Made by a program: the position numbers and the translations under genes. Positions 1-61,096 of a stretch of 64,000 nucleotides of DNA are shown in pieces. Source of the stretch: an uncultured Gammaproteobacteria bacterium (lineage in GTDB: Bacteria; Patescibacteriota; Patescibacteriia; Patescibacteriales; GWC2-42-12); contig CAZLKB010000001.1 of assembly GCA_964560005.1 (NCBI GenBank), positions 77,079-141,078 on the forward strand, read 5' to 3'. Below the pieces are notes generated by a model. The model saw only the letters and a program-made list of their open reading frames with translations. It was not told the origin of the DNA and made no database searches. Within the stretch, counting starts at the first letter, position 1. Every line of letters starts with the position of its first letter.

Positions 1-489
1 TTTAATTTTCGCGTCCGCGTATTTATTCGGATCTTTATCGTAGACATAATCAATATTGGAAAGATTGATGATGGTCTTAACGCCGTATTCCTGCGCCATC
101 ATGGTGGCAACATAGTCGGTTGACCGGCCGGGTTTCCAGCCCGAAGCCACAATAATATTCTTTTCGCTATACAGCCTGAAAGTGGGATTTTTAATAATCT
201 CTAAATTGGCCTGATCCCGAAAAATCGTACGAAGCAACTGGGCATTTAGCCTGGTAGCGTGGATACCCAGCCAGTCTAAGTCGTCTTTTTCAATTTTTAC
301 CACCCGGGAAGCCGCCGCCACATAATTTCTGGCCGTAATGCCGCCGCCGGCAATTAGAAAAAACTTACACCCCTGTTTAATCTTATCTAAAATTAAAGCG
401 CGGAATTTCTGTAAAAAATGCCAATCCACGCCTTCTGGCGGTACAATCAGCGACCCGCCGATGGAAATGATGTAAGTTTTATTTTTCAT
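1..489 (-). CDS. pyrH: UMP kinase, archaeal-type (N-terminal 163 codons; 3' end beyond window edge)
   Basis: Absent from ORF track because edge-truncated. Reverse translation from ATG (rc of 487-489) reads MKNKTYIISIGGSLIVPPEG..FFLIAGGGITARNY..ASGWKPGRSTDYVATMMA, matching amino-acid-kinase/PyrH motifs. Confidence 0.8.
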   Translation of the reverse strand, partial: MKNKTYIISIGGSLIVPPEGVDWHFLQKFRALILDKIKQGCKFFLIAGGGITARNYVAAASRVVKIEKDDLDWLGIHATRLNAQLLRTIFRDQANLEIIKNPTFRLYSEKNIIVASGWKPGRSTDYVATMMAQEYGVKTIINLSNIDYVYDKDPNKYADAKIK

Positions 490-496
490 ATTTTCT

Positions 497-567
497 ATTG
501 TCATTCCCGCGGAGGCACCCCGTTTTCTTTTTCTGCGCCGAGGTCTGCACCGAGGAGCAATCCAGAA
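497..567 (-). repeat. GC-rich hairpin repeat, long form, ending in GGGAATGACAAT
   Basis: The rc reads ..TTCTGGATTGCTCC..CCGCGGGAATGACAAT. GACAAT lies exactly 7 nt upstream of the pyrH ATG. Related copies are listed below. Confidence 0.6.
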
Positions 568-698
568 ACATTTTTAAATCATCTTCTATCTCTATTTTAT
601 CATTTACTGATTATTTTGTAAAAACTTATTTTGCCCTCCTTCCAAAGCCCGCCCGCCGGCAGAGGCAGGGAGGGTTTGGGATGTTATATTAATTAGAA

Positions 699-734
699 TA
701 AAAAAAGCGGCCCTGTCTTTTGACTTAAGCCGCT
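699..734 (-). terminator. Rho-independent terminator after dapB
   Basis: The rc reads AGCGGCTTAAGTC..GACAGGGCCGCT followed by a T-run. It starts 10 nt after the dapB stop. Confidence 0.6.
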
Positions 735-744
735 TGAATGATTA

Positions 745-1521
745 TTATTCAAGCCTGAGCACATCCTCCATGGAATACAAGCCTGGGGCTTCTCCAACTA
801 CCCACTTGACAGCGAGCAAAGCGCCGTTGGCGAATGTCTCGCGGCTCGATGCTTTGTGGGTAAGCTCTACCCGTTCGCCGTCTCCGGCGAAAATAACCGT
901 GTGATCGCCCACCACATCGCCCCCACGGACAGAGTGTATTCCAATTTCATTGCAATCACGCATGGTCGTATTACCCTCGCGGCCGGGGGTGGTATGAACC
1001 TTCAATCCTCGCTGTCGAGGGTAAACAGTGCTTCCGGAAAATTGCTGATTGCGAATCATGGAGAGGATTTGGGCCAACCTATTCGCCGTCCCGCTGGGTG
1101 CGTCCTTCTTAAGTCGATGGTGCATCTCAATAATTTCCAGGTCAAAACCCGGGCCAAGTAACTTCGCTGCCTGTCGCACCAAATAGAACAGCGTATTGAC
1201 GCCGACGGAAAAGTTCGAAGCCAACACGATCGGTATAGATTTGGCGTAATTATGAAATTCTGTTCGATCCTGAAGCGGCGGATTATGGCCAGTGGTGCCG
1301 ATAACCATGGCCTTGCCGGCGCCAGCGCACCATTCGACCAAACCAAGCGTTGCCCTAGGGGAGCTGAAGTCCACCACCACATCGGCCTGTCCGAGAACTG
1401 CCTCGATACTGTCTCCAATGTCAACTTGGCCAACTACTGTAATGTTCGGGTGATTAGGAACGCAATTAAGCAGTGCTCGTCCCATTCGTCCTTTGTATCC
1501 GGTTATAATTATTTTTGTCAT
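745..1521 (-). CDS. dapB: 4-hydroxy-tetrahydrodipicolinate reductase
   Basis: 258 aa. N-terminal Rossmann GYKGRMG and the DapB signature EIIEMHHRLKKDAPSGTA. ATG start confirmed. Confidence 0.9.
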   Translation of the reverse strand: MTKIIITGYKGRMGRALLNCVPNHPNITVVGQVDIGDSIEAVLGQADVVVDFSSPRATLGLVEWCAGAGKAMVIGTTGHNPPLQDRTEFHNYAKSIPIVLASNFSVGVNTLFYLVRQAAKLLGPGFDLEIIEMHHRLKKDAPSGTANRLAQILSMIRNQQFSGSTVYPRQRGLKVHTTPGREGNTTMRDCNEIGIHSVRGGDVVGDHTVIFAGDGERVELTHKASSRETFANGALLAVKWVVGEAPGLYSMEDVLRLE

Positions 1522-1547
1522 GACTAAGCTTTCGTTTTTGTTTGTTG

Positions 1548-1629
1548 TTTAAAGGGCATTTGCCGAGCCACAAGGCCTGGCACCCTCTTTTACTAAGCCT
1601 AAATTACCTTAAATTAAGGAAAAAAGCAA
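1548..1629 (-). promoter_or_regulatory. Duplicated promoter plus structured leader cassette, copy 1 (upstream of dapB)
   Basis: About 80 nt, nearly identical to 3449-3531. On the minus strand: TTGCTT (rc 1624-1629), 17 nt, TAATTT (rc 1601-1606), then hairpin GCCAGGCC-UUGU-GGCUCGGC. Confidence 0.45.
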
Positions 1630-1630
1630 T

Positions 1631-1745
1631 ACCAACAAATTTAACAAATTTGCTACAAATATTAAGAATAAAATAACAACTTTTTAGAAAGATAAAAAAA
1701 TATAAATTATTTGTATTATTTGTAGTCGATTTGTTGATTTGTGGA
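1631..1745. repeat. Long low-complexity inverted repeat (ACAAAT/ATTTGT theme)
   Basis: Left arm CCAACAAATTTAACAAATTTGCTACAAAT pairs with right arm ATTTGTAGTCGATTTGTTGATTTGTGG. Same theme as 6571-6690 and 24930-25025. Confidence 0.6.
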
Positions 1746-1749
1746 TGTA

Positions 1750-1786
1750 TAAAAAAAGCGGCCTAAGTCCAAAGACTTTAGCCGCT
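1750..1786 (-). terminator. Rho-independent terminator after the PRTase-like gene
   Basis: The rc reads AGCGGCTAAAGTC-TTTG-GACTTAGGCCGCT plus a T-run. Flanks are near-identical to the 699-734 terminator. Confidence 0.6.
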
Positions 1787-1831
1787 TGAGTATTTATTAT
1801 TCAGCCCGCTTGCTGGCGAGCCAGAATCTCC

Positions 1832-2668
1832 TTATTGCCCGCGCTGGTGGGCTAATTGTTCCTGCCAGAGCTGGCGAAAGTTGGGCTTACCGCCGATAGC
1901 TTCTGAACCCGCCCGGCAGTAAGGGCAAGTTTCCGCACCCGGCGGGTAGCTCGGAACATCGAACTTAAATAAGGCGCGAATCGGCGTGCCGCCGCTTAGC
2001 GCCCCGCTCTGACACCGGTCAACCATGAAGACCGCGTATGGCAGAAATTCAACATACTCCTCGTTCATTTTCACCACCGTCTGCTTAGTCTCAAAGGCGC
2101 TGCCGTCCGGAGTGGTGATCAGTTCGTTGGCCAGCAAAACCCTTGAACTATTCGGAATTTGGAACCGCCAAGCGCTAAGCTTGCCATCTTCCCCCTTTTC
2201 GACGAATCCGGCTCGCGCCCGAAGCTGACGGGCGATTTCGCTCCCCAAGGGGATGCCGGCTAAGGCTGCGGTCACCACCCAGTCAACCTGGCTAACCCAA
2301 CCCCGGCCATCAATGCAGTAATTAATCATCTGCGCCGCCAAAATCTCGCAGATATTAGTCTCGGCGAGAATTAATGAGCAGTTGATATAGATACCGCTGT
2401 GCAAGCCTGACCGCAGCTTCATATGAGGTGCGGTAGCACGAGGCTCGCCCAAGTACTCCCAGTAGCCGCCGGTTAAACCGGCGATATGGGCGAACTCGTT
2501 GCGAGTCATCCGACGGTCAGTGAAATGCACTGGCCTTAACTGTCTGATCCCGTGTAGACCAAAACTTAGAACTTCCTGCTCCATCACCTGTTTTGGAATT
2601 TCCCTAATTATCGCCGGCCCGCCAGGTTCAATTATCGGCGGCAAATTTATTTTGACTGTTTCTTTCAT
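1832..2668 (-). CDS. Phosphoribosyltransferase-fold protein (divergent PyrE-like?)
   Basis: 278 aa. PRPP-loop-like VLLANELITTPDGSAF. Lies immediately downstream of pyrF on the same strand. Confidence 0.5.
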   Translation of the reverse strand: MKETVKINLPPIIEPGGPAIIREIPKQVMEQEVLSFGLHGIRQLRPVHFTDRRMTRNEFAHIAGLTGGYWEYLGEPRATAPHMKLRSGLHSGIYINCSLILAETNICEILAAQMINYCIDGRGWVSQVDWVVTAALAGIPLGSEIARQLRARAGFVEKGEDGKLSAWRFQIPNSSRVLLANELITTPDGSAFETKQTVVKMNEEYVEFLPYAVFMVDRCQSGALSGGTPIRALFKFDVPSYPPGAETCPYCRAGSEAIGGKPNFRQLWQEQLAHQRGQ

Positions 2669-2707
2669 TGTTTTTTTTCTTTTCTTTGTAATGTTTCCAA
2701 TACTCCT

Positions 2708-3412
2708 TTAGTTCAGCGACGCGAGAATCTTCTCGGCCGCGGCTCGAGGATCCGGGTCTTCAGTGATCGGTCGGCCGATGACCAGCCAATTGGCGCCGTC
2801 CTGAATCGCCTGTTTCGGCGTGCCCGTTCGCTTCTGGTCTTGCGCCTCCGCTCCGGGCATTCGGATGCCCGGCGTTACCAATTGAATTTGAGCAGGCACT
2901 ATCTTCCGAACTGCCGCCACCTCTCTTGGCGAGCAAATCAAGCCGTCCAGTCCGGCAATAATAGCCAGTTTAGCGAGCCGTTCCACCTGTCCAAGGGGGT
3001 TATTGAAACCGATCGACTCCACTGCTTTGTGATCGAGGCTGGTGAGCATAGTAACGCCCAACACTAGGGGTGGAGGCTTCTCCATCCCCAAGGCTGTGGA
3101 TTGCGCTGCCTGTTTGGCGGCACTCATCATTTCTAGCCCGCCGCTGGCGTGCACGTTGAGCATACCGACGAAGAGCCTGGTCGCGGCTGCTACCGCTTTG
3201 GCCACTGTGTTCGGAATGTCGTGGAACTTCAGGTCCAAAAACAATAGACCCGCACCACCGGTCGCAACGCGAACCACCAAATTCGGTCCAGCGCTGGTAA
3301 ACAGTTCGCTACCGATCTTAAAACCACCCACCACCCCCTTGAGTTTTTCCACTAAGCTCAAGGCCTGTTCTGCTGTAGGCACATCAAGCGCCACTATAAT
3401 TGGATTTTTCAT
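2708..3412 (-). CDS. pyrF: Orotidine 5'-phosphate decarboxylase
   Basis: Motifs MKNPIIVALDV, LDLKFHDIPNTV and LVIGRPI. Start moved to the ATG at 3412 (aa 22 of the track ORF). Confidence 0.9.
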   Translation of the reverse strand: MKNPIIVALDVPTAEQALSLVEKLKGVVGGFKIGSELFTSAGPNLVVRVATGGAGLLFLDLKFHDIPNTVAKAVAAATRLFVGMLNVHASGGLEMMSAAKQAAQSTALGMEKPPPLVLGVTMLTSLDHKAVESIGFNNPLGQVERLAKLAIIAGLDGLICSPREVAAVRKIVPAQIQLVTPGIRMPGAEAQDQKRTGTPKQAIQDGANWLVIGRPITEDPDPRAAAEKILASLN

Positions 3413-3448
3413 AATCTTGCCTTTTCTTTCTGTTTCTGTGTTTTTTGT

Positions 3449-3531
3449 TTTAAAAGGGCATTTGCCGAGCCACAAGGCCCGGCACCCTCTTTTACTAAGC
3501 CTAAGTTACCTTAAATTAAGGAAAAATGCAA
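3449..3531 (-). promoter_or_regulatory. Duplicated promoter plus structured leader cassette, copy 2 (upstream of pyrF)
   Basis: On the minus strand: TTGCAT (rc 3526-3531), 17 nt, TAACTT (rc 3503-3508). The leader hairpin carries an A-to-G change that repairs the A.C mismatch seen in copy 1. Confidence 0.45.
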
Positions 3532-3540
3532 GGCACTAAT

Positions 3541-3622
3541 CTCGCAACTCATAGCTTATAACTCGTAGCTCAAGATGCAGAATTAAAGAAGTTATGAGCT
3601 ATGAGTTGCGAGTTACGAGCTA
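3541..3622. repeat. Long low-complexity inverted repeat (GAGCTA/CGAGTT theme)
   Basis: CTCGCAACTCATAGCTTATAAC pairs with GTTATGAGCTATGAGTTGCGAG. A second short pair, TAGCTC/GAGCTA, is interleaved with it. Confidence 0.55.
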
Positions 3623-3702
3623 CCAGACCTTGGCTGGACAAAAATAAAATTACATGATATACAATAAGGTTGGTTTGCTCTTTCTATTTGTAAATAAATT
3701 AG

Positions 3703-3763
3703 CAATCATTGCGGTTTTTAGCCTGCCCGCCGAGGAGGCGGGGTCTGTAAACTGCAATGATTG
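3703..3763 (+). repeat. GC-rich hairpin repeat variant (..GCAATGATTG)
   Basis: CAATCATTGCGG..CCTGCCCGCC-GAGGA-GGCGGGG..CTGCAATGATTG. It lies 50 nt upstream of the 3813 ATG. Confidence 0.45.
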
Positions 3764-3812
3764 TTGCAGACATAAATAAACAAACAAAAACACAGAAACT
3801 GAAAGGATAATA

Positions 3813-5438
3813 ATGAAACTAAAGAAAAAACCAGTACAGTTGATCGCCTCCGGTGATCTTCGCTTATCAGCCAACCAGGTCTGCTGGCCGGCTCAAAAAG
3901 CCATGGAAACGGCGCTCTGCATCGCCGTCAGAGACGAGGGCTATCAGGTATTCCGCGCTCATTCCTACGACTCGAAAACCCAGCACGGCTTCATCGCCTC
4001 GCAAAAGCAGGGCATGGAGGTCTTTAAAACGATTGACCCGACCGCGCCGCTCATCGTGGCCGAGGCCGTCTGGCAGTATTCTCACCACGTTCTGGCCGGC
4101 TTGACTACGCACCGTGGCCCGGTCCTCTTGGTCGCCAATTGGTCCGGAATGTGGCCCGGACTAGTCGGTATACTAAATCTGGCCGGCTCGCTTACCAAGG
4201 CCGACGTGAAATATTCCATGCTCTGGAGCGAAGACTTCCAGGACGATTATTTCAAAACCAGGCTCCGGCGCTGGCTCCGGACCGGCCGATGCACGCACGA
4301 CACTAGCCATGTTAGAGAACTGGCTAAGGTCAAACTTTACGCGAAAGCGCAACGGCTTGGCCGCAAGCTCGCCACCGATCTACTGCGTGACAAAGCCATT
4401 ATGGGCGTGTTTGATGAAGGCTGTATGGGCATGTTTAATGCCATCATCCCTGACCATCTGCTCCATGCCGTCGGCGTCTTCAAGGAGCACCTGTCGCAAT
4501 CGGCACTCTACGCCGAGATGCTAACTGTGCACGAAACTGATGCTCAGCATGTCTATGACTGGCTGCTAGCTAAAGGCATGAAGTTCCACACCGGCAGCGA
4601 CCAAGCCACCGAACTGACTGATAGCCAAATCCGTGGTCAGTGCGCCATGTATATCGCCGCAGTCCGCCTTGCCGATGATTTCGGCTGCGCCTGCATCGGC
4701 ATCCAATACCAGCAAGGCCTAAAAGACCTCTGCCCTGCCAGCGACCTGGCCGAAGGCATGCTTAATAACAGCGACCGTCCGCCGGTTAAATCACGCGACG
4801 GCAGTCGGATCCTGTTTGACGGCCAGCCGGTCGTGCACTTTAACGAAGTTGACGAGTGCGCCGGCCTGGACGGTCTCCTGATACAACGCGTACACCTAGC
4901 ACTCGATCAGCCGGTGGAAAACACCCTGCACGATCTGCGCTGGGGTGATACCGACAGATCCGGTGTTACGGGAGGAGCGTACATCTGGGTTTTTGAAATC
5001 AGCGGTTCGGCTCCGCCCGCGCACTTCATCAACGGCTGGGCCGGCGCCGAAGGTTTTCGCCAGCCGCCCATGTATTTCCCTAAAGGCGGCAGCACCTTGC
5101 GCGGCATCTCTAAACCCGGTGCAATCATCTGGTCGCGAATCTTCATCAAAGACGATGCCCTGCAAATGGACATCGGCCGCGGCGAAGTCGCCGAATTACC
5201 GCCCGGAGAAACCGAGCGCCGATGGAATGCCACCACTAAGGAGTGGCCCATCATGCATGCCGTCCTATATGGCATTACCCGTGATCAAATGATGGCCAGA
5301 CACAAGGCCAACCATATCCAAGTGGTCTATGCCACTGACGAAAATAGCGCCGACCAGTGCCTGGCGGTTAAGGCGGCCATGGCGGCCAAGCTGGGAATCA
5401 AAGTTCACGTCTGCGGAACCTTTCCCACGGTCGCATAA
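3813..5438 (+). CDS. L-fucose isomerase family protein
   Basis: 541 aa. The C-terminal half resembles FucI by eye ([40 protein letters not shown]). SD AAAGGA upstream. Leucines are mostly CTG/CTC. Confidence 0.6.
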
Positions 5439-5463
5439 AGTCAAAAAGAAAAAATCACAACCA

Positions 5464-5508
5464 AACACCGGTCCGAGAAGTTAAATTCTCGCCCGGTGTT
5501 CTTTTTTT
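5464..5508 (+). terminator. Rho-independent terminator
   Basis: AACACCGG..CCGGTGTT followed by T7. Confidence 0.6.
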
Positions 5509-5610
5509 ACATAAAAATCCCGAAAATAATTCGGAACTTTTAAATTGACGGCGAAGAATTAAAATAATAAAATATTAATAACAACAAAACCTCAAAAAAC
5601 GGAGGACAAA

Positions 5611-5838
5611 ATGGACCGCTTATTTCAACCGCCGTTGCCTTCTGCCGGTAAGGCAGAAGAGGCTAAATTCGGATTAGCCATAGGTGATTGGGTGCTGATC
5701 CGGGGAGATGGCCCCTTTAAAGGAGGGCACGGGTTTGTGCGCGCCTTCGCCGGTATGGCTGTCGGCGTCGACATCTACGATCAAAATTCTAAAGCCTGTG
5801 GTCTTTTATTTGACTCGGGCGATGTGCAAAAGGCCTGA
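5611..5838 (+). CDS. Hypothetical small protein
   Basis: 75 aa. GGAGGA SD 6 nt upstream and its own terminator downstream. Confidence 0.5.
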   Translation: MDRLFQPPLPSAGKAEEAKFGLAIGDWVLIRGDGPFKGGHGFVRAFAGMAVGVDIYDQNSKACGLLFDSGDVQKA

Positions 5839-5851
5839 TCAAGGCCGCCTC

Positions 5852-5894
5852 AGACCGAACGCGTTTAACTCAATAACGCGGATCGGTCTTTTAT
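5852..5894 (+). terminator. Rho-independent terminator
   Basis: AGACCGAACGCG..CGCGGATCGGTCT followed by TTTTATT. Confidence 0.5.
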
Positions 5895-5917
5895 TAATGT
5901 CGGGAGCTCAATAAAAA

Positions 5918-5968
5918 CTGTGCAGACAGAGACCCCGCGATGAACGCGGAGCAAGGATTGCTCCACCA
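5918..5968 (-). pseudogene. tRNA-Leu 3'-half-like fragment
   Basis: The rc reads GTGGAGCAATCC..CCGCGTTCATCGCGG..TGTCTGCACA. It shares GTGGAGCAATCC and GTCTGCACA with the adjacent tRNA-Leu(TAG). Confidence 0.35.
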
Positions 5969-5986
5969 TGTCTTTACAAAATTTTG

Positions 5987-6068
5987 TGCAGACGGAGAGA
6001 TTTGAACTCTCATGGATTGCTCCACTAGCTCCTAAGGCTAGCGCGTATACCAGTTCCGCCACGTCTGC
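5987..6068 (-). tRNA. tRNA-Leu(TAG)
   Basis: Manual cloverleaf: acceptor GCAGACG/CGTCTGC, anticodon loop CTTAGGA, 13-nt variable arm, T-arm GAGAG-TTCAAAT-CTCTC. No encoded CCA. Confidence 0.85.
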
Positions 6069-6155
6069 GTATTTTTTATCTTCAATTATTCTCTGCTTTT
6101 TGTCAATCATCCCGTTATTCCCATTATACCAAAAATTATGCTATTATAATAACAT

Positions 6156-6239
6156 AATGCGAATACTACAAAAAATATCCAAATACTACAAAAAGTAATT
6201 TATTCGTAGTATTCGCATATCATTTGTAGTATTTGGATT
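6156..6239. repeat. Four-box TACTACAAA module
   Basis: Two direct boxes (GCGAATACTACAAA, TCCAAATACTACAAA) are followed by two inverted boxes in the same order. It ends 9 nt before the ATG at 6248. Confidence 0.6.
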
Positions 6240-6247
6240 ATAACTTT

Positions 6248-6568
6248 ATGACTGATGACAAAACAATCTCTCAAACAGGCGCCGATCCGGATATTGAGGA
6301 AAATAAAACCGTTGCCGCCTTATCCTACATCTGGATCCTGTTTTTACTCCCATTAATCCTAAAAAGGGACTCAAAATTCTGCCAATTTCACGCCAAACAG
6401 GGTTTAATTCTCTTTATTCTTAGTTTTATCGCCTGGTTTCCTGTAATCGGCTGGTTAATCGGTTTAGCGATCTTGGTCGTCTCGGTAATTGGCATTATTA
6501 AAGCCTTGTCCGGAGAGCGATGGGAAATCCCTTTTATTTACGATTTGAGCAAAAAAATTAATTTATAA
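6248..6568 (+). CDS. Small membrane protein (DUF4870-like)
   Basis: AALSYIWILFLLPLIL..FHAKQGLILF pattern. Start moved from TTG (6233) to the ATG at 6248. Confidence 0.55.
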   Translation: MTDDKTISQTGADPDIEENKTVAALSYIWILFLLPLILKRDSKFCQFHAKQGLILFILSFIAWFPVIGWLIGLAILVVSVIGIIKALSGERWEIPFIYDLSKKINL

Positions 6569-6570
6569 AC

Positions 6571-6690
6571 CCCACAAATCAACAAATCAGCTACAAATAT
6601 TACAAATTTAATTTGCAGCATTAGTGTTTATTTACCGTATTTGCGTTTTATTTATTTGTATTATTAGTAGCCAATTCGTAGATTTGTGGG
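6571..6690. repeat. Long low-complexity inverted repeat (ACAAAT theme)
   Basis: CCCACAAATCAACAAATCAGCTACAAATATTACAAAT pairs with ATTTGTATTATTAGTAGCCAATTCGTAGATTTGTGGG. Confidence 0.6.
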
Positions 6691-6709
6691 ATATTAATAT
6701 TTTAAACTT

Positions 6710-9085
6710 ATGAACGCAAATAATTACATAAAATTTTTTGAGGAAACCACGATTAAAGATGTACCTATAGTAGGCGGCAAAAATGCCTCCTTGGGGGAAA
6801 TGTACAAAAACATGACCGGCCAAGGCGTAAAGGTACCCAATGGCTTCGCCACCACGGCCGAAGCCTATAATTATTTATTAGAGCAAACCGACCTTAAACA
6901 AGGCATAAAAAATCTTTTAGCCGGCCTGAACACCCATAATGTCACCGACTTAGGCAAGCGCGGCGCGGCGGTTAGAAAATTAATCATCGCCACGCCTTTC
7001 CCAGAAGATTTAAGCCAGGCTATAGCCAAAAGCTACCGAGAACTATCCCAATTTTATAAAACCGAAAATTTGCATGTCGCGGTCCGCTCCAGCGCCACGG
7101 CCGAGGATCTACCCGACGCCAGCTTTGCCGGACAGCAGGAAACCTTTTTAAATATCTCGGGCGAAGCCGAACTTCTCTTGGCGGTAAAAAAATGCATCGC
7201 ATCCTTATTTACCAACCGCGCCATCTCTTACCGCGTAGATAAAGGCTTTGATCATTTTAAAATCGCCCTGTCCGTGGGCGTGCAGAAAATGGTTCGGTCC
7301 GACCTGGCGGCTTCGGGCGTAATCTTTACCATTGATACTGAATCGGGTTTTAATAATGTGGTCTTAGTCAGCTCAATTTACGGCTTGGGCGAAAATATCG
7401 TGCAGGGTAAAGTCGATCCGGATGAATTTTATGTCTTTAAACCAACCAAAACTATAATTTCCCATAGCATCAGCCGTAAAAATATCAAGATGGTTTACCA
7501 AAATAACCCTAAACGTCCGGTTAAAGACGTAAAAGTCCCGGCGACTGATCAAAAACGCCAATCCATCACCGACGCGCAGGTATTAAAACTGGCCGACTGG
7601 GCCATGAAAATTGAAAAACATTATGGCCGAGCCATGGATATAGAATGGGCATTGGACGGCAAAGAAAATGAATTATATATTATTCAGGCACGGCCGGAAA
7701 CCATCCATTCGGTGCGCGATTACAGCGTAATTGAAGAATATGTAATGCAAAAAAAAGGTAAAATTATCTCTACCGGCCGAAGCGTGGGCAACCGCATCGG
7801 CGCCGGAGTCGCCAATCGGATCATGGCCATTAAAGATATCGCTAAATTCAAGCCGGGCGAGGTCCTGGTTACCGATATGACTGATCCGGACTGGGAGCCG
7901 ATCATGAAAATTGCATCGGCTATCGTTACTGATAAGGGCGGGCGCACCTGCCACGCGGCCATAGTTTCCCGCGAACTCGGCATCCCTTGTATTGTGGGCA
8001 CTGAAAATATCTCTCGAAAAGTTAAAACTGGCCAGGCTATTACGGTAAGCTGCGCTGAAGGCGATATGGGCTTCGTTTATGAAGGAAAAATACCGTTTAA
8101 AATCAATAAAACCAGCATTAAGAATTTGGGCAAGCCAAAAACTAAAATCATGATGAACATCGGCTCGCCCGATATTGCCTTTTCTTCATCTTTTATCCCC
8201 AACGACGGCGTCGGTTTGGCGCGCGAAGAATTTATTATCAACGACCAGATTAAAATCCACCCCCTGGCGCTGATTAATTACGCCAAGTTAAAAGACAAAA
8301 AAGCTAAGAAAAAAATTGACGAGCTAACCGCCGGCTACAAAGACAAAAAACAATACTATATTGATAAGCTGGCCGAGGGTATGGCCATAATCGCGGCCGC
8401 CTTTTATCCTAAAGATGTGATTATCAGATTCTCCGACTTTAAAACCAATGAATACGCCAACCTGATCGGCGGCTCGGCTTTTGAACCGGTGGAATCCAAC
8501 CCCATGATCGGCTGGCGCGGAGCTTCGCGCTATTACGCGCCGGAATTCAAGCCGGCTTTTGAACTGGAATGTATCGCTATAAAAAAGGTTCGGGAGGATA
8601 TGAAGCTGACCAACCTAAAAGCCATGGTGCCTTTTTGCCGCACCATAAAAGAAGCCGAGCAGGTTATAAAAATCATCGCCGATAACGGCCTGAAGCAAGG
8701 CGAAAATGATTTTGAATTATATTGCATGGTGGAAATACCGTCTAATGTCATTTTAGCCGATGAATTCGCCGAGCTTTACGACGGTTTTTCCATCGGTTCC
8801 AACGACCTGACTCAGTTGACGCTCGGAGTTGACCGCGACAGCGCGCTGGTGAGTAAAGTCTATGATGAGAATAATTTGGCCGTAAAAAAATTAATCAAGC
8901 TGGCGATTAAAACCGCCAAAGCATCCGGCATAAAAATCGGTATCTGCGGCCAAGCGCCCTCCGATTTCCCCGAGTTTGCCCAATTTCTGGTTGAATGCGG
9001 CATTGACAGTATCTCCCTAAACCCGGATACGGTCATAAAAACCACTTTAGCCATTTTGGAAACGGAAAAGAAGCTGGGAAAGTAA
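6710..9085 (+). CDS. ppsA: Phosphoenolpyruvate synthase (pyruvate, water dikinase)
   Basis: 791 aa. VGGKNASLGEM, phosphohistidine region GGRTCHAAIVSRELGIPCIVG, and a C-terminal PEP-utilizing domain. Confidence 0.95.
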   Translation: MNANNYIKFFEETTIKDVPIVGGKNASLGEMYKNMTGQGVKVPNGFATTAEAYNYLLEQTDLKQGIKNLLAGLNTHNVTDLGKRGAAVRKLIIATPFPEDLSQAIAKSYRELSQFYKTENLHVAVRSSATAEDLPDASFAGQQETFLNISGEAELLLAVKKCIASLFTNRAISYRVDKGFDHFKIALSVGVQKMVRSDLAASGVIFTIDTESGFNNVVLVSSIYGLGENIVQGKVDPDEFYVFKPTKTIISHSISRKNIKMVYQNNPKRPVKDVKVPATDQKRQSITDAQVLKLADWAMKIEKHYGRAMDIEWALDGKENELYIIQARPETIHSVRDYSVIEEYVMQKKGKIISTGRSVGNRIGAGVANRIMAIKDIAKFKPGEVLVTDMTDPDWEPIMKIASAIVTDKGGRTCHAAIVSRELGIPCIVGTENISRKVKTGQAITVSCAEGDMGFVYEGKIPFKINKTSIKNLGKPKTKIMMNIGSPDIAFSSSFIPNDGVGLAREEFIINDQIKIHPLALINYAKLKDKKAKKKIDELTAGYKDKKQYYIDKLAEGMAIIAAAFYPKDVIIRFSDFKTNEYANLIGGSAFEPVESNPMIGWRGASRYYAPEFKPAFELECIAIKKVREDMKLTNLKAMVPFCRTIKEAEQVIKIIADNGLKQGENDFELYCMVEIPSNVILADEFAELYDGFSIGSNDLTQLTLGVDRDSALVSKVYDENNLAVKKLIKLAIKTAKASGIKIGICGQAPSDFPEFAQFLVECGIDSISLNPDTVIKTTLAILETEKKLGK

Positions 9086-9145
9086 AAAATAATCCTGCTT
9101 AATACAAAATTTTTCTTGGTTTATAAGTTTTTCTGTTCCCTCCTA

Positions 9146-9208
9146 GATTTCCGCTTTCGTCCGCCTCGGCTTCGTTTTAAGGCGAGACGAGCAGGAATGA
9201 CAAAAAAA
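9146..9208 (+). repeat. GC-rich hairpin repeat, long form (..GCAGGAATGACAAAAAAA)
   Basis: Same architecture as 31078-31132 and 497-567. Confidence 0.5.
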
Positions 9209-9307
9209 GTAGAAAGTTCTACCACGCAGAATTGTTTGGGAAATTGAAAATTTAATCATTGAAAATTGTTTAAAAATTAAAAATTATAAAATTAAAAATT
9301 TTTTGTA

Positions 9308-10201
9308 ATGTTTAACTTTCTCCATACTTTCCACCCCTCCCCAATCCTAGTTAGTCTCGGACCAATCCATGTTTATTGGTATGGTTTTTTTATTGTCCTA
9401 GGAGTCTTAGCCGCCTTAACTGTCGCCATATACCTGGCCAAGTTTTATCAAATCAAAACTGATACCATGATTGACTTAGCTCTTTGGCTAGTGATCGGCG
9501 GCATTTTAGGCGCGCGCCTCTACGACATTTTCTTAGAATGGCCATACTTTTCCTCTCATCCCTTGGATATTCTTAAAATCTGGCAAGGCGGACTGGCAAT
9601 CCACGGCGGTATTATCGGCGGCGCCATTTCTCTATGGTTATTTACCCTGTTAAATCCGACGAAGTCGGCACCAAGTGATTTAACTGGGTTTACTAAAAAA
9701 GATAATCACAATTTCTGGCGGCTAGCCACTATCGCGGTTACCGCCTTGCCTCTGGCCCAAGCTTTCGGCCGCTGGGGCAATTACTTTAACCAGGAGCTGT
9801 TCGGCCGGCCTACAAGTTTGCCTTGGGGCATACCAATTGATCAAATTCACCGTCCCTGGCAATATTTAAATTACGACTATTTCCATCCTGCTTTTCTCTA
9901 TGAATCCATGGGCAATCTGCTTATTTTCATAATTCTTATTTCATTGCAAGTCTGGTTCATAAAAAAACAAAAACTTCTTGATTCTAACTTCTTGATTCTA
10001 ACTTCTTACTTCTTACTCTATTCCCTGCTCCGTTTTTCCACGGAATTTCTCAGAATTGACGCTACTCCGACCGTCTTGGGCTGGCGCTGGCCGCAACTGG
10101 TCAGCTTGTTTATTATTATTTCATGCTTGGCATATTTGGCTGTAAAAATTGGACGGAAAATTAGCTCAAACTCCAGCTCAAACTCCACTCTTGATAAATA
10201 A
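9308..10201 (+). CDS. lgt: Prolipoprotein diacylglyceryl transferase
   Basis: 297 aa. Motifs YWYGFFIVLG, GARLY, WQGGLAIHGG and FGRWGNYFNQELFG. Confidence 0.9.
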   Translation: MFNFLHTFHPSPILVSLGPIHVYWYGFFIVLGVLAALTVAIYLAKFYQIKTDTMIDLALWLVIGGILGARLYDIFLEWPYFSSHPLDILKIWQGGLAIHGGIIGGAISLWLFTLLNPTKSAPSDLTGFTKKDNHNFWRLATIAVTALPLAQAFGRWGNYFNQELFGRPTSLPWGIPIDQIHRPWQYLNYDYFHPAFLYESMGNLLIFIILISLQVWFIKKQKLLDSNFLILTSYFLLYSLLRFSTEFLRIDATPTVLGWRWPQLVSLFIIISCLAYLAVKIGRKISSNSSSNSTLDK

Positions 10202-10694: not shown

Positions 10695-10841
10695 TACCGG
10701 TTAAGCTGCTAGTTTTAAGCGCATGCAAAATCGTAGCAATTTTTTTTCTTAAAATTATCATTAAATAATTAAAATGAGAAAATTTTAAGAAAAAAATGCC
10801 CAGATTTTGTCTAAGTGAAAAACTAGCATCTTAACCGGGTA
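10695..10841 (+). repeat. Structured element, type B, copy B1
   Basis: Unique arms TACCGGTTAAGCTGCTAG / CTAGCATCTTAACCGGGTA enclose the core TTTTAAGCGCATGCAAAATCG..CAGATTTTGTCTAAGTGAAAAA. Confidence 0.7.
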
Positions 10842-11895: not shown

Positions 11896-11944
11896 AAATC
11901 TTGTTAAAATACTAAAATTTTGTTAAACTTAAATTAGTATAGGA

Positions 11945-12118
11945 GCCGGGTGAAGTAGTTCATTTTGAGAGGCTCCTCGGTGCTTCTCTCGATGCCGAAA
12001 CAGCTAAACTGGGGCGAAATTGTAGTAATTTTTTGGAATTATCCGATCTGTGTTTGTCGGATAATTCCAAAAAATACCCAAATTTCGTCTAAGCGAAAAA
12101 TAAACTACTTCACCCGGC
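11945..12118 (+). repeat. Structured element, type B, copy B2
   Basis: Arms GCCGGGTGAAGTAGTTCA / TAAACTACTTCACCCGGC. Core TTTTGAGAGGCTCC..internal hairpin GGAATTATCCGA..TCGGATAATTCC..AAATTTCGTCTAAGCGAAAAA. Confidence 0.7.
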
Positions 12119-12165
12119 GAAAATATCATCTGTAAATTAATCTAATAACTATCAAAGTTCCATCT

Positions 12166-12483: not shown

Positions 12484-13830
12484 TTATTTAACAGGGTGAA
12501 CCCTCCTAACTTCCCTTTTAAATAAATTGCCTCTTTCTTTATAATTCTTAAACATACCAAAGCTGGCGCAGGCTGTGGATAATAATACAATATCACCCCT
12601 ACTGGCATTTTCTTTAGCGGTCCTCACGGCATCAACGATATTATCCACTATCTTCATTCTGTCTTTCTTAAACCCAATTTTTAATAGATCTTTTTTTATC
12701 CTTGATGTTGAATCGCCAGCCAGCAAGACAACAAATTTAACTCTATTCACAACCTCTTTAGCCAATTCCTTAAAATCCGCCCCCTTATCGGCTCCGCCCA
12801 GGAATAAAACTATGGGTTGGGTAAACGATTTTAAAGCGATAATGGTTGACTCCGGCGTGGTGGCGAAGCTATCATCATAATATTCAACGCCGTTCAACTC
12901 GCGTACCAATTCCAAGCGATGAGGCAAACCTTTAAAATTAGCCACTGCCTTTTCTATAAACTCCTGTTTTACGCCGATAATTTTCGCCACCTCAATCGCC
13001 GCCGCGACATTTTCCTTATTATGCTCGCCTACCAATTTTGACGGTAATTCTGACTTTTTAAAATACACAATCTTGGCTTTTGTATTTAATTCGTAATCCC
13101 TAATTCCTAATTCATAATTCAAAACCGCCTTTTCTCCGCTCTTTTGGTATTTCACAATATTCATTTTCGCTCCTCGGTATTCTTTTAATGTCCTGTGGTA
13201 ATTCGGATTATTCGGATCGGCCGGCGCTAAATGTTCGGGGTACAAATTAGTGATCACCGCAATCCGCGGGCTCGCCGTCATATCCTCAAGCTGAAAAGAT
13301 GATAACTCTAAGACTACCCAGTCGCTTTTTTTAATTTTATCAATAAAGGCGAACGGCGCCACGCCAATATTACCACCCAGCCAAACTTTTTTGCCGGCTC
13401 GTTTCAATATTTCATAAATCAAACTCGCGGTCGTACCCTTGCCCTTGGTTCCGGTGACGCCGATAATATTTTTAGTCGGGCAAAGATCAAAAAACAATTT
13501 TATAGGACTGGATAATATTGTGCCAGCTTTGATGGTTTGTTTAACGCCCGGGCAATCCATCGGCCAACCCGGAGAACGAAACAAAATATCAAATTTTTCC
13601 AAGCCTTGGTTAAATTTTTTACCTAGCTGCCAAAGAATATATGTCTCTATCATTGCGGGCTCGACCCGCAATCCAGCATTTTCTGTTTTCATCTTCACGC
13701 CCGTTCGCGCGTCGCAAACCGTTATCTCGCATTTCACTTTGTGCTTTAATAAATATCTAACCAAGGCTTGATTCTCAATACCCAGCCCTAAAATTCCAAT
13801 TTTTTTATTATTTAAATTATATAAATTCAT
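12484..13830 (-). CDS. murD: UDP-N-acetylmuramoylalanine--D-glutamate ligase
   Basis: 448 aa. N-terminal Rossmann GILGLGIENQA and P-loop GVTGTKGKGTT, with Mur ligase middle and C-terminal domains. Confidence 0.9.
   Translation of the reverse strand: MNLYNLNNKKIGILGLGIENQALVRYLLKHKVKCEITVCDARTGVKMKTENAGLRVEPAMIETYILWQLGKKFNQGLEKFDILFRSPGWPMDCPGVKQTIKAGTILSSPIKLFFDLCPTKNIIGVTGTKGKGTTASLIYEILKRAGKKVWLGGNIGVAPFAFIDKIKKSDWVVLELSSFQLEDMTASPRIAVITNLYPEHLAPADPNNPNYHRTLKEYRGAKMNIVKYQKSGEKAVLNYELGIRDYELNTKAKIVYFKKSELPSKLVGEHNKENVAAAIEVAKIIGVKQEFIEKAVANFKGLPHRLELVRELNGVEYYDDSFATTPESTIIALKSFTQPIVLFLGGADKGADFKELAKEVVNRVKFVVLLAGDSTSRIKKDLLKIGFKKDRMKIVDNIVDAVRTAKENASRGDIVLLSTACASFGMFKNYKERGNLFKREVRRVHPVK
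13646..13676 (-). repeat. GC-rich hairpin repeat copy inside the murD ORF (in frame)
   Basis: Sense strand GGATTGCGGGTCGAGCCCGCAATGATAG encodes GLRVEPAMI. It is near-identical to the intergenic copy at 29804-29829. Confidence 0.65.
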
Positions 13831-13851: not shown

Positions 13852-13999
13852 CTAAAACTAATTATTTTTGAAGTGAGGACTGTTCGAGCCACCGCCAGTT
13901 CATAATATTCACACCAAAACAAAGCGTAAAAAGGGATAAATAATCTTTAAATAGCTTTCTGAAAGCGAGTGCCGCAACGAGAAAATAATTAGTTTTAGT
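13852..13999 (+). repeat. Structured element, type A, copy A1
   Basis: Arms CTAAAACTAATTATT / AATAATTAGTTTTAG. Core TTTGAAGTGAGGACTGTTCGAGCCACCGCC..GCGAGTGCCGCAACGAGAAAA. The right arm covers the polA stop codon. Confidence 0.7.
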
Positions 14000-29794: not shown

Positions 29795-29803
29795 ATGTTA
29801 TAT

Positions 29804-29829
29804 TGTCATTGCGGGCTTAACCCGCAATC
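29804..29829 (-). repeat. GC-rich hairpin repeat, short form (GATTGCGGGTTAAGCCCGCAATGACAAT)
   Basis: GACAAT lies exactly 7 nt upstream of the tig ATG. Confidence 0.6.
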
Positions 29830-29832
29830 TAT

Positions 29833-30150
29833 TTATTTTTTTATCCAATATTTAGTTACCCATTTTTTAATAAACTCCTCTTCTAAATCAATCTTCTGAA
29901 TTTCGGCAATACCCGCCACTATTCCTAATACATCCGATAATTCCTTGGCCATTTCTTTTTTTGATATCTTTGTTGGTAAATATTTTGCCGGCCGGCATCT
30001 TCTATAGTGCAATAAATAAGACTGAACAAATTCTCCGACCTCTTCGGTTAATTTCAATAGTAAATAATCATTTGACAGCTTAATACCGTCTCTTTTTGAA
30101 TTACGCCGAATCACTTTGATCGCCTGTCTTTGCAATTGTTTAATATCCAT
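29833..30150 (-). CDS. MazG-like nucleotide pyrophosphohydrolase
   Basis: 105 aa with the LTEEVGEF and ELSDVLG helices typical of the all-alpha NTP-PPase fold. Confidence 0.55.
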   Translation of the reverse strand: MDIKQLQRQAIKVIRRNSKRDGIKLSNDYLLLKLTEEVGEFVQSYLLHYRRCRPAKYLPTKISKKEMAKELSDVLGIVAGIAEIQKIDLEEEFIKKWVTKYWIKK

Positions 30151-30170
30151 ATATTATTATTTCTATTTTA

Positions 30171-30197
30171 TTGTCATTCCCGCGTAGGCGGGAATCC
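30171..30197 (-). repeat. GC-rich hairpin repeat, short form (GGATTCCCGCCTACGCGGGAATGACAA)
   Basis: Perfect 7-bp stem TTCCCGC/GCGGGAA. It lies 19 nt upstream of the ATG at 30150. Confidence 0.6.
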
Positions 30198-30230
30198 AAG
30201 AGCGTGCCACAGGAATCATTTCATTGTCTT

Positions 30231-30959
30231 CTATCTTTTTCTAAAGACATACTCCCAATGTTTTGCTAATACATCGGCCGTAACGCTGGGCCTGCTATGT
30301 AAATCCTTATAAACTACTTCAAATCTGCTAAATAAATTTTCTACTTCTTGATCAGTAAAAAAGTGATGCGGGAGAAAACCGTCTTTCTGCTTAATATTTA
30401 TTTTTGTACCCGGCTCAAGCTCATCACCTGTTTGATACCTTGGATCATCAACGGAAGGCACGGAAAAAGCTAATAAACTTCCTTTTCTCAAAACTCTTCT
30501 TATGTCCTCAATCCATTTTCTAATTTGCTTCATGCGCCCATGCTCTACCACTAATGTTGATACAATTCCATCAAAATATTCATCTTGATAAGGCAACCCT
30601 TTATCTAAATCATTTATGAAAGTACGCATGGAAACATTACAATTTTTTAATATCCCTGTTTTTTTTATTACTTCATTTACTATCTCTATGGCTTCTTGTG
30701 AAATATCGAAAGACTCAATATGAATGCTCCGCTGACTTAATAAATTTTCTGCCATAAATATTGTGTGTCTACCGGTTCCACATCCAGCATCGAGCAATAC
30801 TAGAGTTTTTTTCTTCTCATGAAGCAGAAGATCTATGAACCTTTTCACGCATGGCATTATTTCGCGCTGAACAATACCAAGCTCCTTATAAATATTTTCC
30901 CATCCTTTATTATCAGTATATTTATCCGCCTGATTTAAATCTTGTTTAATATGTGTCAT
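30231..30959 (-). CDS. Class I SAM-dependent methyltransferase
   Basis: Motif I VLLDAGCGTGRH. Start moved from TTG to the ATG at 30959. Confidence 0.8.
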   Translation of the reverse strand: MTHIKQDLNQADKYTDNKGWENIYKELGIVQREIMPCVKRFIDLLLHEKKKTLVLLDAGCGTGRHTIFMAENLLSQRSIHIESFDISQEAIEIVNEVIKKTGILKNCNVSMRTFINDLDKGLPYQDEYFDGIVSTLVVEHGRMKQIRKWIEDIRRVLRKGSLLAFSVPSVDDPRYQTGDELEPGTKINIKQKDGFLPHHFFTDQEVENLFSRFEVVYKDLHSRPSVTADVLAKHWEYVFRKR

Positions 30960-31021
30960 AAAACAAGTTTTCAAATTTATCCGCTACTATCATTTATAAC
31001 ATATACCTACCATTAACTCAT

Positions 31022-31074
31022 GGATTGCGGGTCCCATACCTACCGGCAGGCAGGAAGCCCGCAATGACAAAAAA
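31022..31074 (+). repeat. GC-rich hairpin repeat (GGATTGCGGG..CCCGCAATGACAAAAAA)
   Basis: Plus-strand orientation, in tandem with the next copy. Confidence 0.55.
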
Positions 31075-31077: not shown

Positions 31078-31132
31078 TGGATTCCCGCCTTCCCTCGGCA
31101 GGCTCGGGACAGGTCGCGGGAATGACAAAAAA
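31078..31132 (+). repeat. GC-rich hairpin repeat, long form (GGATTCCCGCC..GCGGGAATGACAAAAAA)
   Basis: Ends 10 nt before the 5' arm of element A2. Confidence 0.55.
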
Positions 31133-31142
31133 GTACAGTAAG

Positions 31143-31304
31143 CAGTGGGGTGAAATATGTTATTTTTTGAAACGAGGATTGTTTGAGCCACCACCAATTA
31201 ATGCAATTCACACCTAATAGTCTTTATAGCCACTGACAGTTTTATTTAAGCTAACATCTGGCGAGTGCCGCAGTGAAAAAAATTACATATTTCACCCCAC
31301 TGCC
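31143..31304 (+). repeat. Structured element, type A, copy A2
   Basis: Arms GCAGTGGGGTGAAATATGTTA / ATTACATATTTCACCCCACTGC. Core TTTTTTGAAACGAGGATTGTTTGAGCCACCACC..GGCGAGTGCCGCAGTGAAAAAA. Confidence 0.7.
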
Positions 31305-60202: not shown

Positions 60203-60244
60203 TGTTGTCATTGCGAGGAGCCCGTACTCGGGCGACGCGGCAAT
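60203..60244 (-). repeat. GC-rich hairpin repeat variant (..CTCGCAATGACAACAA)
   Basis: The rc reads ATTGCCGCGTCGCCCGAGTACGGGCTCCTCGCAATGACAACAA. Confidence 0.5.
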
Positions 60245-60266
60245 TTCATTAACGGGGTAGAATAAA

Positions 60267-60818: not shown

Positions 60819-60831
60819 ATAATCTATCGCC

Positions 60832-60856
60832 GTCATCCCCGCGAAAGCGGGGATCC
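60832..60856 (-). repeat. GC-rich hairpin repeat, short form (GGATCCCCGCTTTCGCGGGGATGAC)
   Basis: 7-bp stem TCCCCGC/GCGGGGA. Overlaps the longer track ORF start. Confidence 0.55.
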
Positions 60857-60960
60857 AGAAATGCTTAATTACGAAAAACCCGCCCTGCTTCGAGCGGATC
60901 CGATAAATTTAACATTATTAAATTTATTTTCTTTGCTCGAAGAATAACTATATAAGTTAG

Positions 60961-61052
60961 TTATCAGCGTTCTGGCTTGTTCCCCCACCATCTTGGTGAA
61001 GGACATTACAGTTGCGGCACAGCGCCGGGTTTACACCGGACTTTCCTGATAA
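60961..61052 (-). promoter_or_regulatory. Cobalamin riboswitch-like aptamer (compact form)
   Basis: Minus strand: P1 TTATCAG/CTGATAA. Core GGAAAGTCCGGTGTAAACCCGGCGCTGTGCCGCAACTGTAA and B12-box-like AAGCCAGAACGCTG. Confidence 0.7.
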
Positions 61053-61068
61053 CTATTGTTGTTTCTAT

Positions 61069-61096
61069 ATTATATAACTTTTGTAGAAAGAGTCAA
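61069..61096 (-). promoter_or_regulatory. Canonical sigma70-type promoter for the riboswitch operon
   Basis: On the minus strand: TTGACT (rc 61091-61096), 16 nt, TATAAT (rc 61069-61074). The predicted start is about 10 nt before P1. Confidence 0.5.

Follow-up and report, generated by a model that had tools for sequence, protein, structure and literature searches.

GC-rich hairpin repeats matching the NTS/SRM family at cassette junctions in a patescibacterial genome

Hairpin copies in the window

The sequence analysed (the window) is a 64-kb stretch (64,000 nt) of contig CAZLKB010000001.1 from assembly GCA_964560005.1, and the element under study is a family of GC-rich hairpins with conserved unpaired flanks that is present along it. 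The closest orthologues of the Tig protein are labelled 'Patescibacteria group', 'Parcubacteria group GW2011_GWC2_42_12' or Falkowbacteria metagenome-assembled genomes (MAGs), at 60-77% identity, and the MurD orthologues agree with a placement in the Patescibacteria, a lineage of the candidate phyla radiation (CPR). The genome is very compact, with a GC content of ~40%.

Because the published pattern for Ssn-related motifs (SRM, described below) catches one window copy, an anchored-stem search was adopted, in which GTCAT is followed by a perfect 8-bp GC-rich stem anchored at AT. Five such hairpins were identified in the window, against a mean of 0.01 in 300 dinucleotide-preserving shuffles, and a first-pass annotation of this DNA was thus right to propose a REP-like dispersed hairpin repeat. 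Looser and half-site searches brought the total to nine copies and one two-headed palindromic variant, where at least 11 copies had been claimed. They are listed by position and strand:

497..567, + (NTS-forward strand): degenerate or chimeric long copy; 5' half TTGTCATTCCCGCGG (ATTCCCGC type), 3' end GAGCAATCCAG (GCAAT type)
3703..3762, no strand: palindromic variant with two heads, ATCATTGCGG...CTGCAATGAT, whose loop contains a nested GC hairpin; no GTC/CCAG asymmetry
9146..9203, -: long-form copy with an imperfect stem, between the stop of the phosphoenolpyruvate (PEP) synthase gene (9085) and the start of lgt (9308)
13646..13677, +: short copy with ATC for GTC, in frame within murD, encoding AGLRVEPAM
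29802..29833, +: short copy TTGTCATTGCGGGCTTAACCCGCAATCTA; tig starts 10 nt from the GTC end, and a MazG-like gene stops 2 nt from the other end
30170..30200, +: short copy TTGTCATTCCCGCGTAGGCGGGAATCCAAG, between the methyltransferase and MazG-like genes
31022..31071, -: long-loop copy with a ATTGCGGG stem and a 26-nt loop; CCAG end toward the methyltransferase cassette
31079..31129, -: long-loop copy with a ATTCCCGC stem and a 27-nt loop; pyrophosphatase stop and structured repeat A2 on the side of the GTC end
60204..60250, +: imperfectly paired long copy, GTCATTGCGAGGAGC...GACGCGGCAAT; GTC end 11 nt from the start of a 568-aa gene
60829..60859, +: short copy CGTCATCCCCGCGAAAGCGGGGATCCAG, between a riboswitch terminator and the ATG of a DUF4430 gene (60818)

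The short forms begin at 13648, 29804, 30171 and 60832, and the long-loop or imperfect forms at 497, 9146, 31022, 31079 and 60205. Eight of the nine copies are intergenic and one lies inside murD. Exact matches to the 13-mer GCGGGAATGACAA are present at 498 (-), 30171 (-) and 31116 (+), and a site with one mismatch is present at 9191. The copy at 497-567 is the weakest and most degenerate; its arms are unpaired and its fold is no better than that of shuffled sequences (z = -0.77). Its GTC end and the start codon of pyrH (488, minus strand) are 10 nt apart, and the GTC end of 9146-9203 is 104 nt from the lgt ATG. The palindromic variant stands 50 nt upstream of a FucI-like gene and has a DNA fold of -20.2 kcal/mol (z = -6.2). 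Repeat density among relatives ranges from 0 to 5 per 10 kb. A search of Rfam in gathering and E-value modes returned no family matching the hairpin.

Structure and family identity

The short forms are 8-bp DNA hairpins (fold z = -3.5 to -5.5). Twenty short copies from eight CPR assemblies of the clade comprise eight stem variants, all fully paired; these copies were picked for pairing, and the 100% pairing is therefore by construction. Four of their eight stem positions differ on both sides, with none differing on one side only. In the same copies, the T and C of the unpaired GTC are invariant, the G is present in 18, and a C follows the stem in all 20. The murD copy (ATC) and the symmetric variant at 3703 are exceptions to the GTC asymmetry.

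The first-pass annotation had read the repeat from the opposite strand, so that its GGAATGACAA tail corresponds to the 5' end, or head, of TTGTCATTCCCGC-loop-GCGGGAATCCAG. The element is laid out as (T)TGTC-ATTCCCGC-loop-GCGGGAAT-CCAG, a dRS3-like palindrome (ATT-SCSGS / SCSGS-AAT) that takes its orientation from the unpaired 5' (T)TGTC and 3' C-CAG. The sole invariant of the former tail is GAC, the reverse complement of GTC; the bases that follow it are AAT, AAA, ATT, ATA, AAC, GGC or AAG.

On the evidence of sequence, the GC-rich hairpins are NTS-type Ssn-related motifs, members of the family that contains the dRS3 repeat of Neisseria. The Neisseria Transformation Sequence (NTS), CGTCATTCCCGCGMAVGCGGGAATCYRG, contains dRS3 (ATTCCC-N8-GGGAAT), and the SRM are a broader motif class of many phyla, with Rickettsia listed among the SRM-rich genera (Chenal et al. 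2025, Nat Commun, PMC11893778). The nuclease SsnA, a 94-aa single-domain GIY-YIG protein, binds the hairpin solely as single-stranded DNA (ssDNA) and in one orientation, and nicks a few nt 5' of GTC; cleavage depends on GTC and binding on the C after the palindrome, and the loop may be altered or split (PMC11893778). The unpaired GTC and C-CAG flanks described here coincide with these experimentally defined determinants.

The copy at 30170-30200 agrees with the NTS consensus at 25 of 28 positions and includes an exact dRS3, ATTCCC-N8-GGGAAT, at 30176-30195. The copy at 60829-60859 fits the published SRM pattern (one match in the window, against 0.08 in shuffles), and a sequence of two relatives, TGTCATTCCCGCGCAGGCGGGAATCCAG (loci L004 and L005), matches the NTS consensus at 27 of 28 positions. 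The window repeats thus share with NTS/SRM the GTC-ATTCCCGC-loop-GCGGGAAT-C-CAG sequence and its orienting flanks, the hairpin structure, and the occurrence in many copies, mostly intergenic. They differ in their CPR host, a group absent from the main text of PMC11893778, where RefSeq reference genomes were surveyed; in the many copies with loops of 26-60 nt, outside the published pattern; in enclosing cargo other than ssn; and in the one intragenic copy, the intragenic share of NTS in N. meningitidis being ~2% (PMC11893778).

Association with ssn genes

Genes of ~95 aa encoding a GIY-YIG protein (PF01541) are flanked by the same hairpins in unrelated contigs from other phyla. In Nitrospinae (L017-L020), exact NTS copies are present on both sides of the GIY-YIG gene, and the inverted hairpin pairs of the clade share the geometry of the L017 ssn locus. 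It has been reported that ssn genes are usually motif-flanked (PMC11893778). A metagenome scan for the ATTGCGGG subtype (GTCATTGCGGG...CCCGCAATC) identified 120 contigs of mixed taxa, with 32-71% GC and none close to the host, of which three (L092, L129 and L136) carry an ssn-like gene adjoining the hairpin. In L092 and L129, GTCATTGCGGGCTTGACCCGCAATC is present on both sides of the gene; its window counterpart is GTCATTGCGGGCTTAACCCGCAATC, and the window subtypes are identical to those flanking ssn in these two contigs. In L136, both a near-identical copy, GTCATTGCGGGCTCCGACCCGCAATC, and another subtype are confined to one side of the gene. The low-GC ssn of L129, used as query in a homology search, pointed to Bacteroidales and not to CPR bacteria.

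Copies at the junctions of variable cassettes

The order of four backbone genes, encoding a 491-aa protein, a membrane pyrophosphatase, Tig and SmpB, is conserved, and the pyrophosphatase-tig and tig-smpB sites were compared in 10 genomes. The pyrophosphatase-tig gap varies as follows:

L006: no copies, 17 nt
L007, L008, L003, L009 and L011: no copies, 241-2062 nt
L002, L005, the window and L004: copies present, 909-4596 nt

The copies, as shown by this comparison of sequences, mark the edges or joints between conserved backbone genes and variable inserted cassettes. The cargo of the window cassette (29833..30974, minus strand) is an S-adenosylmethionine (SAM) methyltransferase gene (30231-30974) and the MazG-like gene (29833-30150), neither of which is found at this position in any relative, and its outer boundaries are the copy 29802-29833 on the right and the copy 31079-31129 on the left. 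In L004, the cargo (5559-9655) encodes an EcoRI-type adenine methylase, a GmrSD-N/HNH nuclease and an AAA-DUF4143 ATPase; in L005, an NYN-domain gene (11444-11956) lies beside a copy pair in the tig-smpB gap. With such cargo between the copies, the pyrophosphatase-tig and tig-smpB sites thus behave as a small defence/accessory hot spot in the clade.

At the outer limits, the copies turn their GTC ends to the backbone genes, with the CCAG ends directed into the insert. In every case where opposed copies flank a common spacer or a cassette (8/8), their CCAG ends point at one another, and no divergent pair was seen:

Window: 31022 / 30173
L002: 743 / 1571 and 2897 / 2965
L003: 5140 / 5237
L004: 3238 / 3348 and 5450 / 8280
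L005: 11291 / 11426
L145: 8288 / 9805

This geometry is that of the NTS-ssn-NTS unit of L017 and of the dRS3-RS-dRS3 units of Neisseria (PMC1797815). The 'empty' pairs, 70-100 nt apart, resemble MITE- or REPIN-like doublets. On the CCAG side, the adjacent sequence shows some conservation from copy to copy; on the GTC side it does not (8 pairs versus 1 at at least 60% identity). The left termini adjoin stop codons, at a distance of 3-5 nt in L002, L003 and L005. What had been described as a tail pointing toward a start codon is the right-hand end of an inserted unit, lying against the next backbone gene in a compact genome.

The copy at 497-567 lies at the pyrH edge of a 5.7-kb block with 48% GC, which contains dapB, an orotidine monophosphate (OMP) decarboxylase gene, the FucI-like gene and a tRNA-Leu gene. 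In the relative L148, a 390-nt spacer replaces this block. The block between pyrH and a MamF-like gene is probably an acquired island, because these two genes are only 390 nt apart in L148. Over positions 1-8000, the window has 48% GC, versus ~40% elsewhere.

The junctions resemble the dRS3/NIME repeats and minimal mobile elements of Neisseria (Bentley et al. 2007, PMC1797815) in three respects: the dRS3-spacer-dRS3 units, the syntenic sites between conserved genes that hold alternative cassettes, including restriction-modification genes, and the setting of a GC-rich repeat within AT-richer spacers. They differ in the number of copies, with long arrays in Neisseria and one to four copies per site here, and in the host, which is very compact, has ~40% GC and belongs to another phylum.

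In-frame insertion in murD

The copy beginning at 13648 precedes no start codon and lies in frame within the murD open reading frame (ORF). Between ...CEITVCDAR and WQLGK, an alignment of 59 MurD proteins of the clade is hypervariable at a single point. The short form xEIKNxLPV, in which the site is empty, is found in many orthologues; the other peptides are in-frame translations of the hairpin subtypes, namely AGLRV(K/E)PAM, WIPA(F/C/Y)AGMT, QRLLRRFASRNDI and long forms such as WIPACLPDRQAFAGMT. The underlying hairpins are of the ATTCCCGC, ATTGCGGG and ATTGCTTCG types, including long-loop forms, and all inserts have one orientation. Four relatives illustrate the range at this site:

L145: canonical CTGGATTCCCGCTTTCGCGGGAATGAC
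L146: long-loop version
L147: ATTGCTTCG...CGCAAT type
L148: empty

The site is either a target that has been hit repeatedly or an old insert reshaped by conversion among copies. The Rickettsia palindromic elements, reportedly described by Ogata and colleagues in 2000, are comparable, as selfish palindromes that stand in frame in protein genes and are tolerated as an extra peptide. The likeness drawn here is one of behaviour; the Rickettsia elements measure 100-150 bp, and the murD-type insert ~30-60 bp.

Interpretation of the hairpins

We consider it probable that the hairpins are NTS/SRM elements, selfish or domesticated at the DNA level, which are located at cassette edges and are not expression signals. 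The features that carry this reading, namely the family identity by sequence, the covariation of the stem, the presence/absence polymorphism, the position at cassette boundaries and the intragenic hot spot, are shown by the sequence data. An Ssn-type nuclease belonging to the host or its gene pool would then recognise the hairpin in ssDNA and nick immediately beyond its GTC end, which would be the boundary of the unit. Nicking, or recombination between copies on incoming ssDNA, could spread the hairpins and exchange the cassettes. CPR bacteria are thought to be reliant on DNA uptake, which would expose such ssDNA. To our knowledge, no DNA uptake sequence system is known for the host phylum. 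Where members of the family have been studied, they spread in the manner of REPs or MITEs and serve as points of recombination.

The repeat family itself is already known, dRS3 since 2000 and NTS/SRM-Ssn since 2025. New are the Patescibacteria host, the long-loop forms, the in-frame insert that recurs in murD, and a clear pattern, outside Neisseria, of cassette junctions with cargo of the defence type. The near-identical motifs in an ultra-small CPR bacterium that scavenges DNA widen the range of the Ssn/NTS system, whose description dates only from 2025, to a lineage far removed from those known. The cassette junctions with restriction-modification cargo and the murD inserts provide concrete loci at which to ask whether gene exchange is driven by Ssn hairpins.

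Several observations weigh against the NTS/SRM interpretation. The sequence available for the nuclease search was the 64-kb window, out of a source contig of ~299 kb, and 359 kb from the clade, with ~10-21 kb per relative. A tblastn search with an Ssn-like consensus as query found no ssn gene in the CPR loci, and a profile hidden Markov model of 240 Ssn homologues, run against the ORFs of at least 40 aa in the 359 kb, gave nothing below E = 0.5. Absence from 64 kb carries little weight in itself, but with no ssn gene found in the window or in the 359 kb, the cognate nuclease is unproven in the CPR clade, and membership in a functional Ssn system is argued from the DNA motif by itself. The SRM pattern as published recovers one of the nine window copies, the others being ATTGCGGG or long-loop variants, and the long-loop or imperfect copies (497, 9146 and 60205) may no longer be SsnA substrates. 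Cassette movement is deduced from comparisons between different MAGs, with zero events observed. The orientation of the window copies leans toward start codons (6:2), and several copies are 9-12 nt from an ATG; compaction explains this proximity, and a secondary effect on expression is conceivable.

A bolder version of the same reading, which is possible but unlikely, concerns mobility. Units of the form NTS(forward)-cargo-NTS(reverse), with their GTC ends outermost where SsnA nicks, would be mobilised as ssDNA cassettes by a GIY-YIG nuclease in a transposon- or integron-like manner, moving defence and accessory genes between Patescibacteria and seeding in-frame inserts of the murD type. The Ssn family would thereby gain a mobile-element role beyond limiting transformation in Neisseria.

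Among the alternatives, we judge it improbable that the hairpins are orphan sites in a lineage without Ssn, serving recombination or integration by another enzyme (IS110/Piv-type or a tyrosine recombinase) or homologous recombination at uptake. The failure to find an ssn gene in 359 kb would fit, as would the restriction-modification-type cassettes between copies, which recall the minimal mobile elements of Neisseria; dRS3 is, moreover, a known target of a phage recombinase (IS110/Piv-type, Nf phage in Neisseria) and a proposed recombination substrate (PMC1797815). However, the GTC and C-CAG outside the palindrome are near-identical to those of the Neisseria and Nitrospinae copies, which is hard to explain without the same reader protein, and SsnA is encoded in 81% of genomes with >200 SRMs (PMC11893778). 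No IS110/Piv-like gene was seen beside any copy, although no systematic search was made.

A role at the RNA level, in which the hairpin would act as an mRNA stabiliser, a processing site, an intercistronic attenuator or, 10 nt upstream of the ATG, a modulator of translation initiation, as REP and Correia elements can, appears quite improbable. Copies do lie in short spacers of co-oriented and probably co-transcribed genes (methyltransferase, MazG-like, tig and smpB), their stems are stable, and the stem covariation is equally compatible with RNA structure. Yet the determinants that SsnA, which binds no RNA, recognises in ssDNA are matched by the conserved unpaired GTC and C-CAG flanks in sequence and orientation (PMC11893778). 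Copies also occur in both orientations relative to transcription, they are polymorphic among close relatives, and most have no T-run after the stem; 29808-29828 alone is terminator-like, on the non-transcribed strand. Intrinsic terminators were set aside as a candidate explanation, with no T-run after the stem on the transcribed strand.

Evaluation of a promoter role

The first-pass annotation had proposed GACAAT as a -10-like box, with RNA polymerase initiating at, or close to, the A of the ATG and giving leaderless mRNAs for pyrH, tig and other genes. The spacing on which this was based is correct, with GACAAT exactly 7 nt from the ATG of both minus-strand genes, pyrH (start 488) and tig (start 29794). 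A start codon is faced by six of the eight intergenic window copies, and, with the window counted, a copy in start-facing orientation is present at tig in three of 10 genomes and at lgt in three of five. It is also true that pyrH and tig have no Shine-Dalgarno site; this is not a property of hairpin-linked genes, because such a site is missing from most genes of this genome (present in 5/59 window genes).

The usual start context in the window is A(-5)A(-4)..T(-1)ATG, with T at -1 in 32/47 genes, and the hairpin-linked genes keep it. A weak bump of TANNNT is present 6-8 nt upstream of the 47 ATGs (13/47 genes). The data point to initiation independent of a Shine-Dalgarno site in this lineage. 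Widespread leaderless initiation was discarded as the general explanation, the TANNNT bump being weak and the A(-5)A(-4)..T(-1) context stronger.

Several lines of evidence oppose the promoter proposal. A promoter scan returned no site using the hairpin, with no -35 element and no extended -10 (no TG); GACAAT agrees with TATAAT at three of six positions, and the -35 position falls inside the stem. The bases following GAC differ among copies, and the GAC-flank hexamer, which reads GACAAT, GATAAT or GACATT, is 7-11 nt from the ATG in close copies and ~40-230 nt from it in others. Orthologous genes free of hairpins retain the AAnnT-ATG context, one copy lies within murD, and the DUF4430 copy is downstream of a riboswitch and terminator. 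The statement that copies lie mostly 5' of start codons holds within the window and fails in the larger sample: among 32 intergenic copies, drawn from the window and the loci of eight relatives rather than a whole genome, the tail faces a start codon in 16 and a stop codon in 16, without the orientation bias expected of a promoter. In the relatives alone, 10 copies are start-facing and 14 stop-facing, and the stop-facing copies would give antisense transcription under the promoter model.

The orthologous loci do not conserve the arrangement. Among close relatives with 74-77% identical Tig, a hairpin precedes tig at 9-nt spacing in L002 and at ~50 nt in L004, there with another hairpin between, and no hairpin was found upstream of tig in L003 or L005-L009. 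The lgt copy of the window lies at 104 nt, that of L145 at 12 nt and that of L148 at 17 nt, each of a different subtype; none is next to lgt in L146 or L147, and in L146 the lgt-PEP synthase spacer holds copies of opposite orientation beside the PEP synthase stop. No hairpin is upstream of pyrH in L148. In the window, a better promoter-like match for pyrH, TTTACA-17-TAAAAT with an upstream TG, is present at 622->594, upstream of the hairpin, which therefore lies in the leader.

The region upstream of the copy at 60829-60859 (60878..61096, minus strand) contains the following elements, in order toward the hairpin and the DUF4430 ATG:

61096->61069, -: strong promoter-like match, TTGACT-16-TATAAT
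61072->60919, -: adenosylcobalamin (AdoCbl) riboswitch (Rfam RF01482, 52.4 bits)
60895->60878, -: terminator-like hairpin with a T-run, between the riboswitch and the repeat

A transcript starting at the DUF4430 ATG would therefore bypass the riboswitch. The order of elements suggests B12-controlled expression of the DUF4430 gene in a CPR bacterium. On present evidence, the leaderless-promoter hypothesis is rejected, and we regard it as very improbable.

The least credible alternative is that of classical REP/BIME elements mobilised by a RAYT (Y1 HUH transposase), which the hairpins recall as dispersed GC-rich extragenic palindromes with a conserved unpaired 5' head and REPIN-like inverted doublets, but from which they differ in having a (T)TGTC-ATT head, not the GTAG type of REPs, and the sequence of NTS/SRM, whose associated gene encodes a GIY-YIG nuclease and not a Y1 transposase. 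The systems are alike in that each probably presents ssDNA hairpins to one cognate enzyme; the hairpins are not REP members. REP, BIME and REPIN elements with their RAYT transposases are said to have been treated by Nunvar in 2010, Bertels and Rainey in 2011 and Ton-Hoang in 2012. No transposase-like Pfam label was noticed at the MurD-region loci of the clade, where no systematic RAYT search was made and the window ORFs were not screened for Y1.

Consequences for annotation and other repeats

The hairpins systematically distort ORF calls. The first-pass annotation had attributed several spurious ORFs to translation of the repeat, and this is confirmed by 498-692 ('LSFPRR...') and by 'VIPA*AGIQ' at 30068-30283. 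The ATG inside GGAATGAC / GGGGATGAC provides a false upstream start for pyrH (504) and for the DUF4430 gene (60836), and the ssn ORF of L129 (356-712) reads through into the flanking hairpin, giving 118 aa versus ~95 aa. Recognition of the motif removes such spurious ORFs (peptides ...IPAKAGIQ and WIPAFAGMT) and false start codons. The repeat also explains assembly breaks: the Logan contig L141 ends ~220 bp past dapB, at approximately window position 520, short of the 497-567 repeat. Look-ups by exact protein led to short Logan contigs only, among them L143, which stops within the window, ~270 bp beyond the last gene.

Other repeats were noted in the window. The structured repeat A2, of ~150 nt, has four intergenic copies (13852-13995, 31140-31310, 39993-40041 and 47827-47875), with a long AT-rich closing stem, CTAAAACTAATTATTTT...AAAATAATTAGTTTTAG, a conserved core, GGTGGCTCGAACAGTCCTCACTTC, and no Rfam match. 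In the region 61100-61282 (minus strand), the tRNA-Arg(tct) gene (61100-61172) has ahead of it an incomplete duplicate of its own 5' half, which is split by a 32-nt GC hairpin, CCCGCCCGAACGTACCGTTCGGTACGGGCGGG, at 61224-61255; a tyrosine recombinase gene (61413-62357) adjoins. The duplicate may be an integration remnant or a hairpin insertion in a pseudo-tRNA.

Palindromic arrays of ~20-nt units, CGAATACTACAAA / TTTGTAGTATTCG, are present at 6146-6243, 34929-35015 and 63055-63150, in intergenic positions just before genes, and related TTCGCAT-rich arrays occur upstream of tig in L010 and L015. They could serve as operator or promoter arrays, or represent a further family of small repeats. A conserved motif of ~45 nt, AAAAATGCCCAAATTTCGTCTAAGCGAAAAA, was identified at 10780-10841, 12070-12119, 36085-36145, 37278-37320 and 62429-62489, with four of the five copies directly 3' of minus-strand genes.

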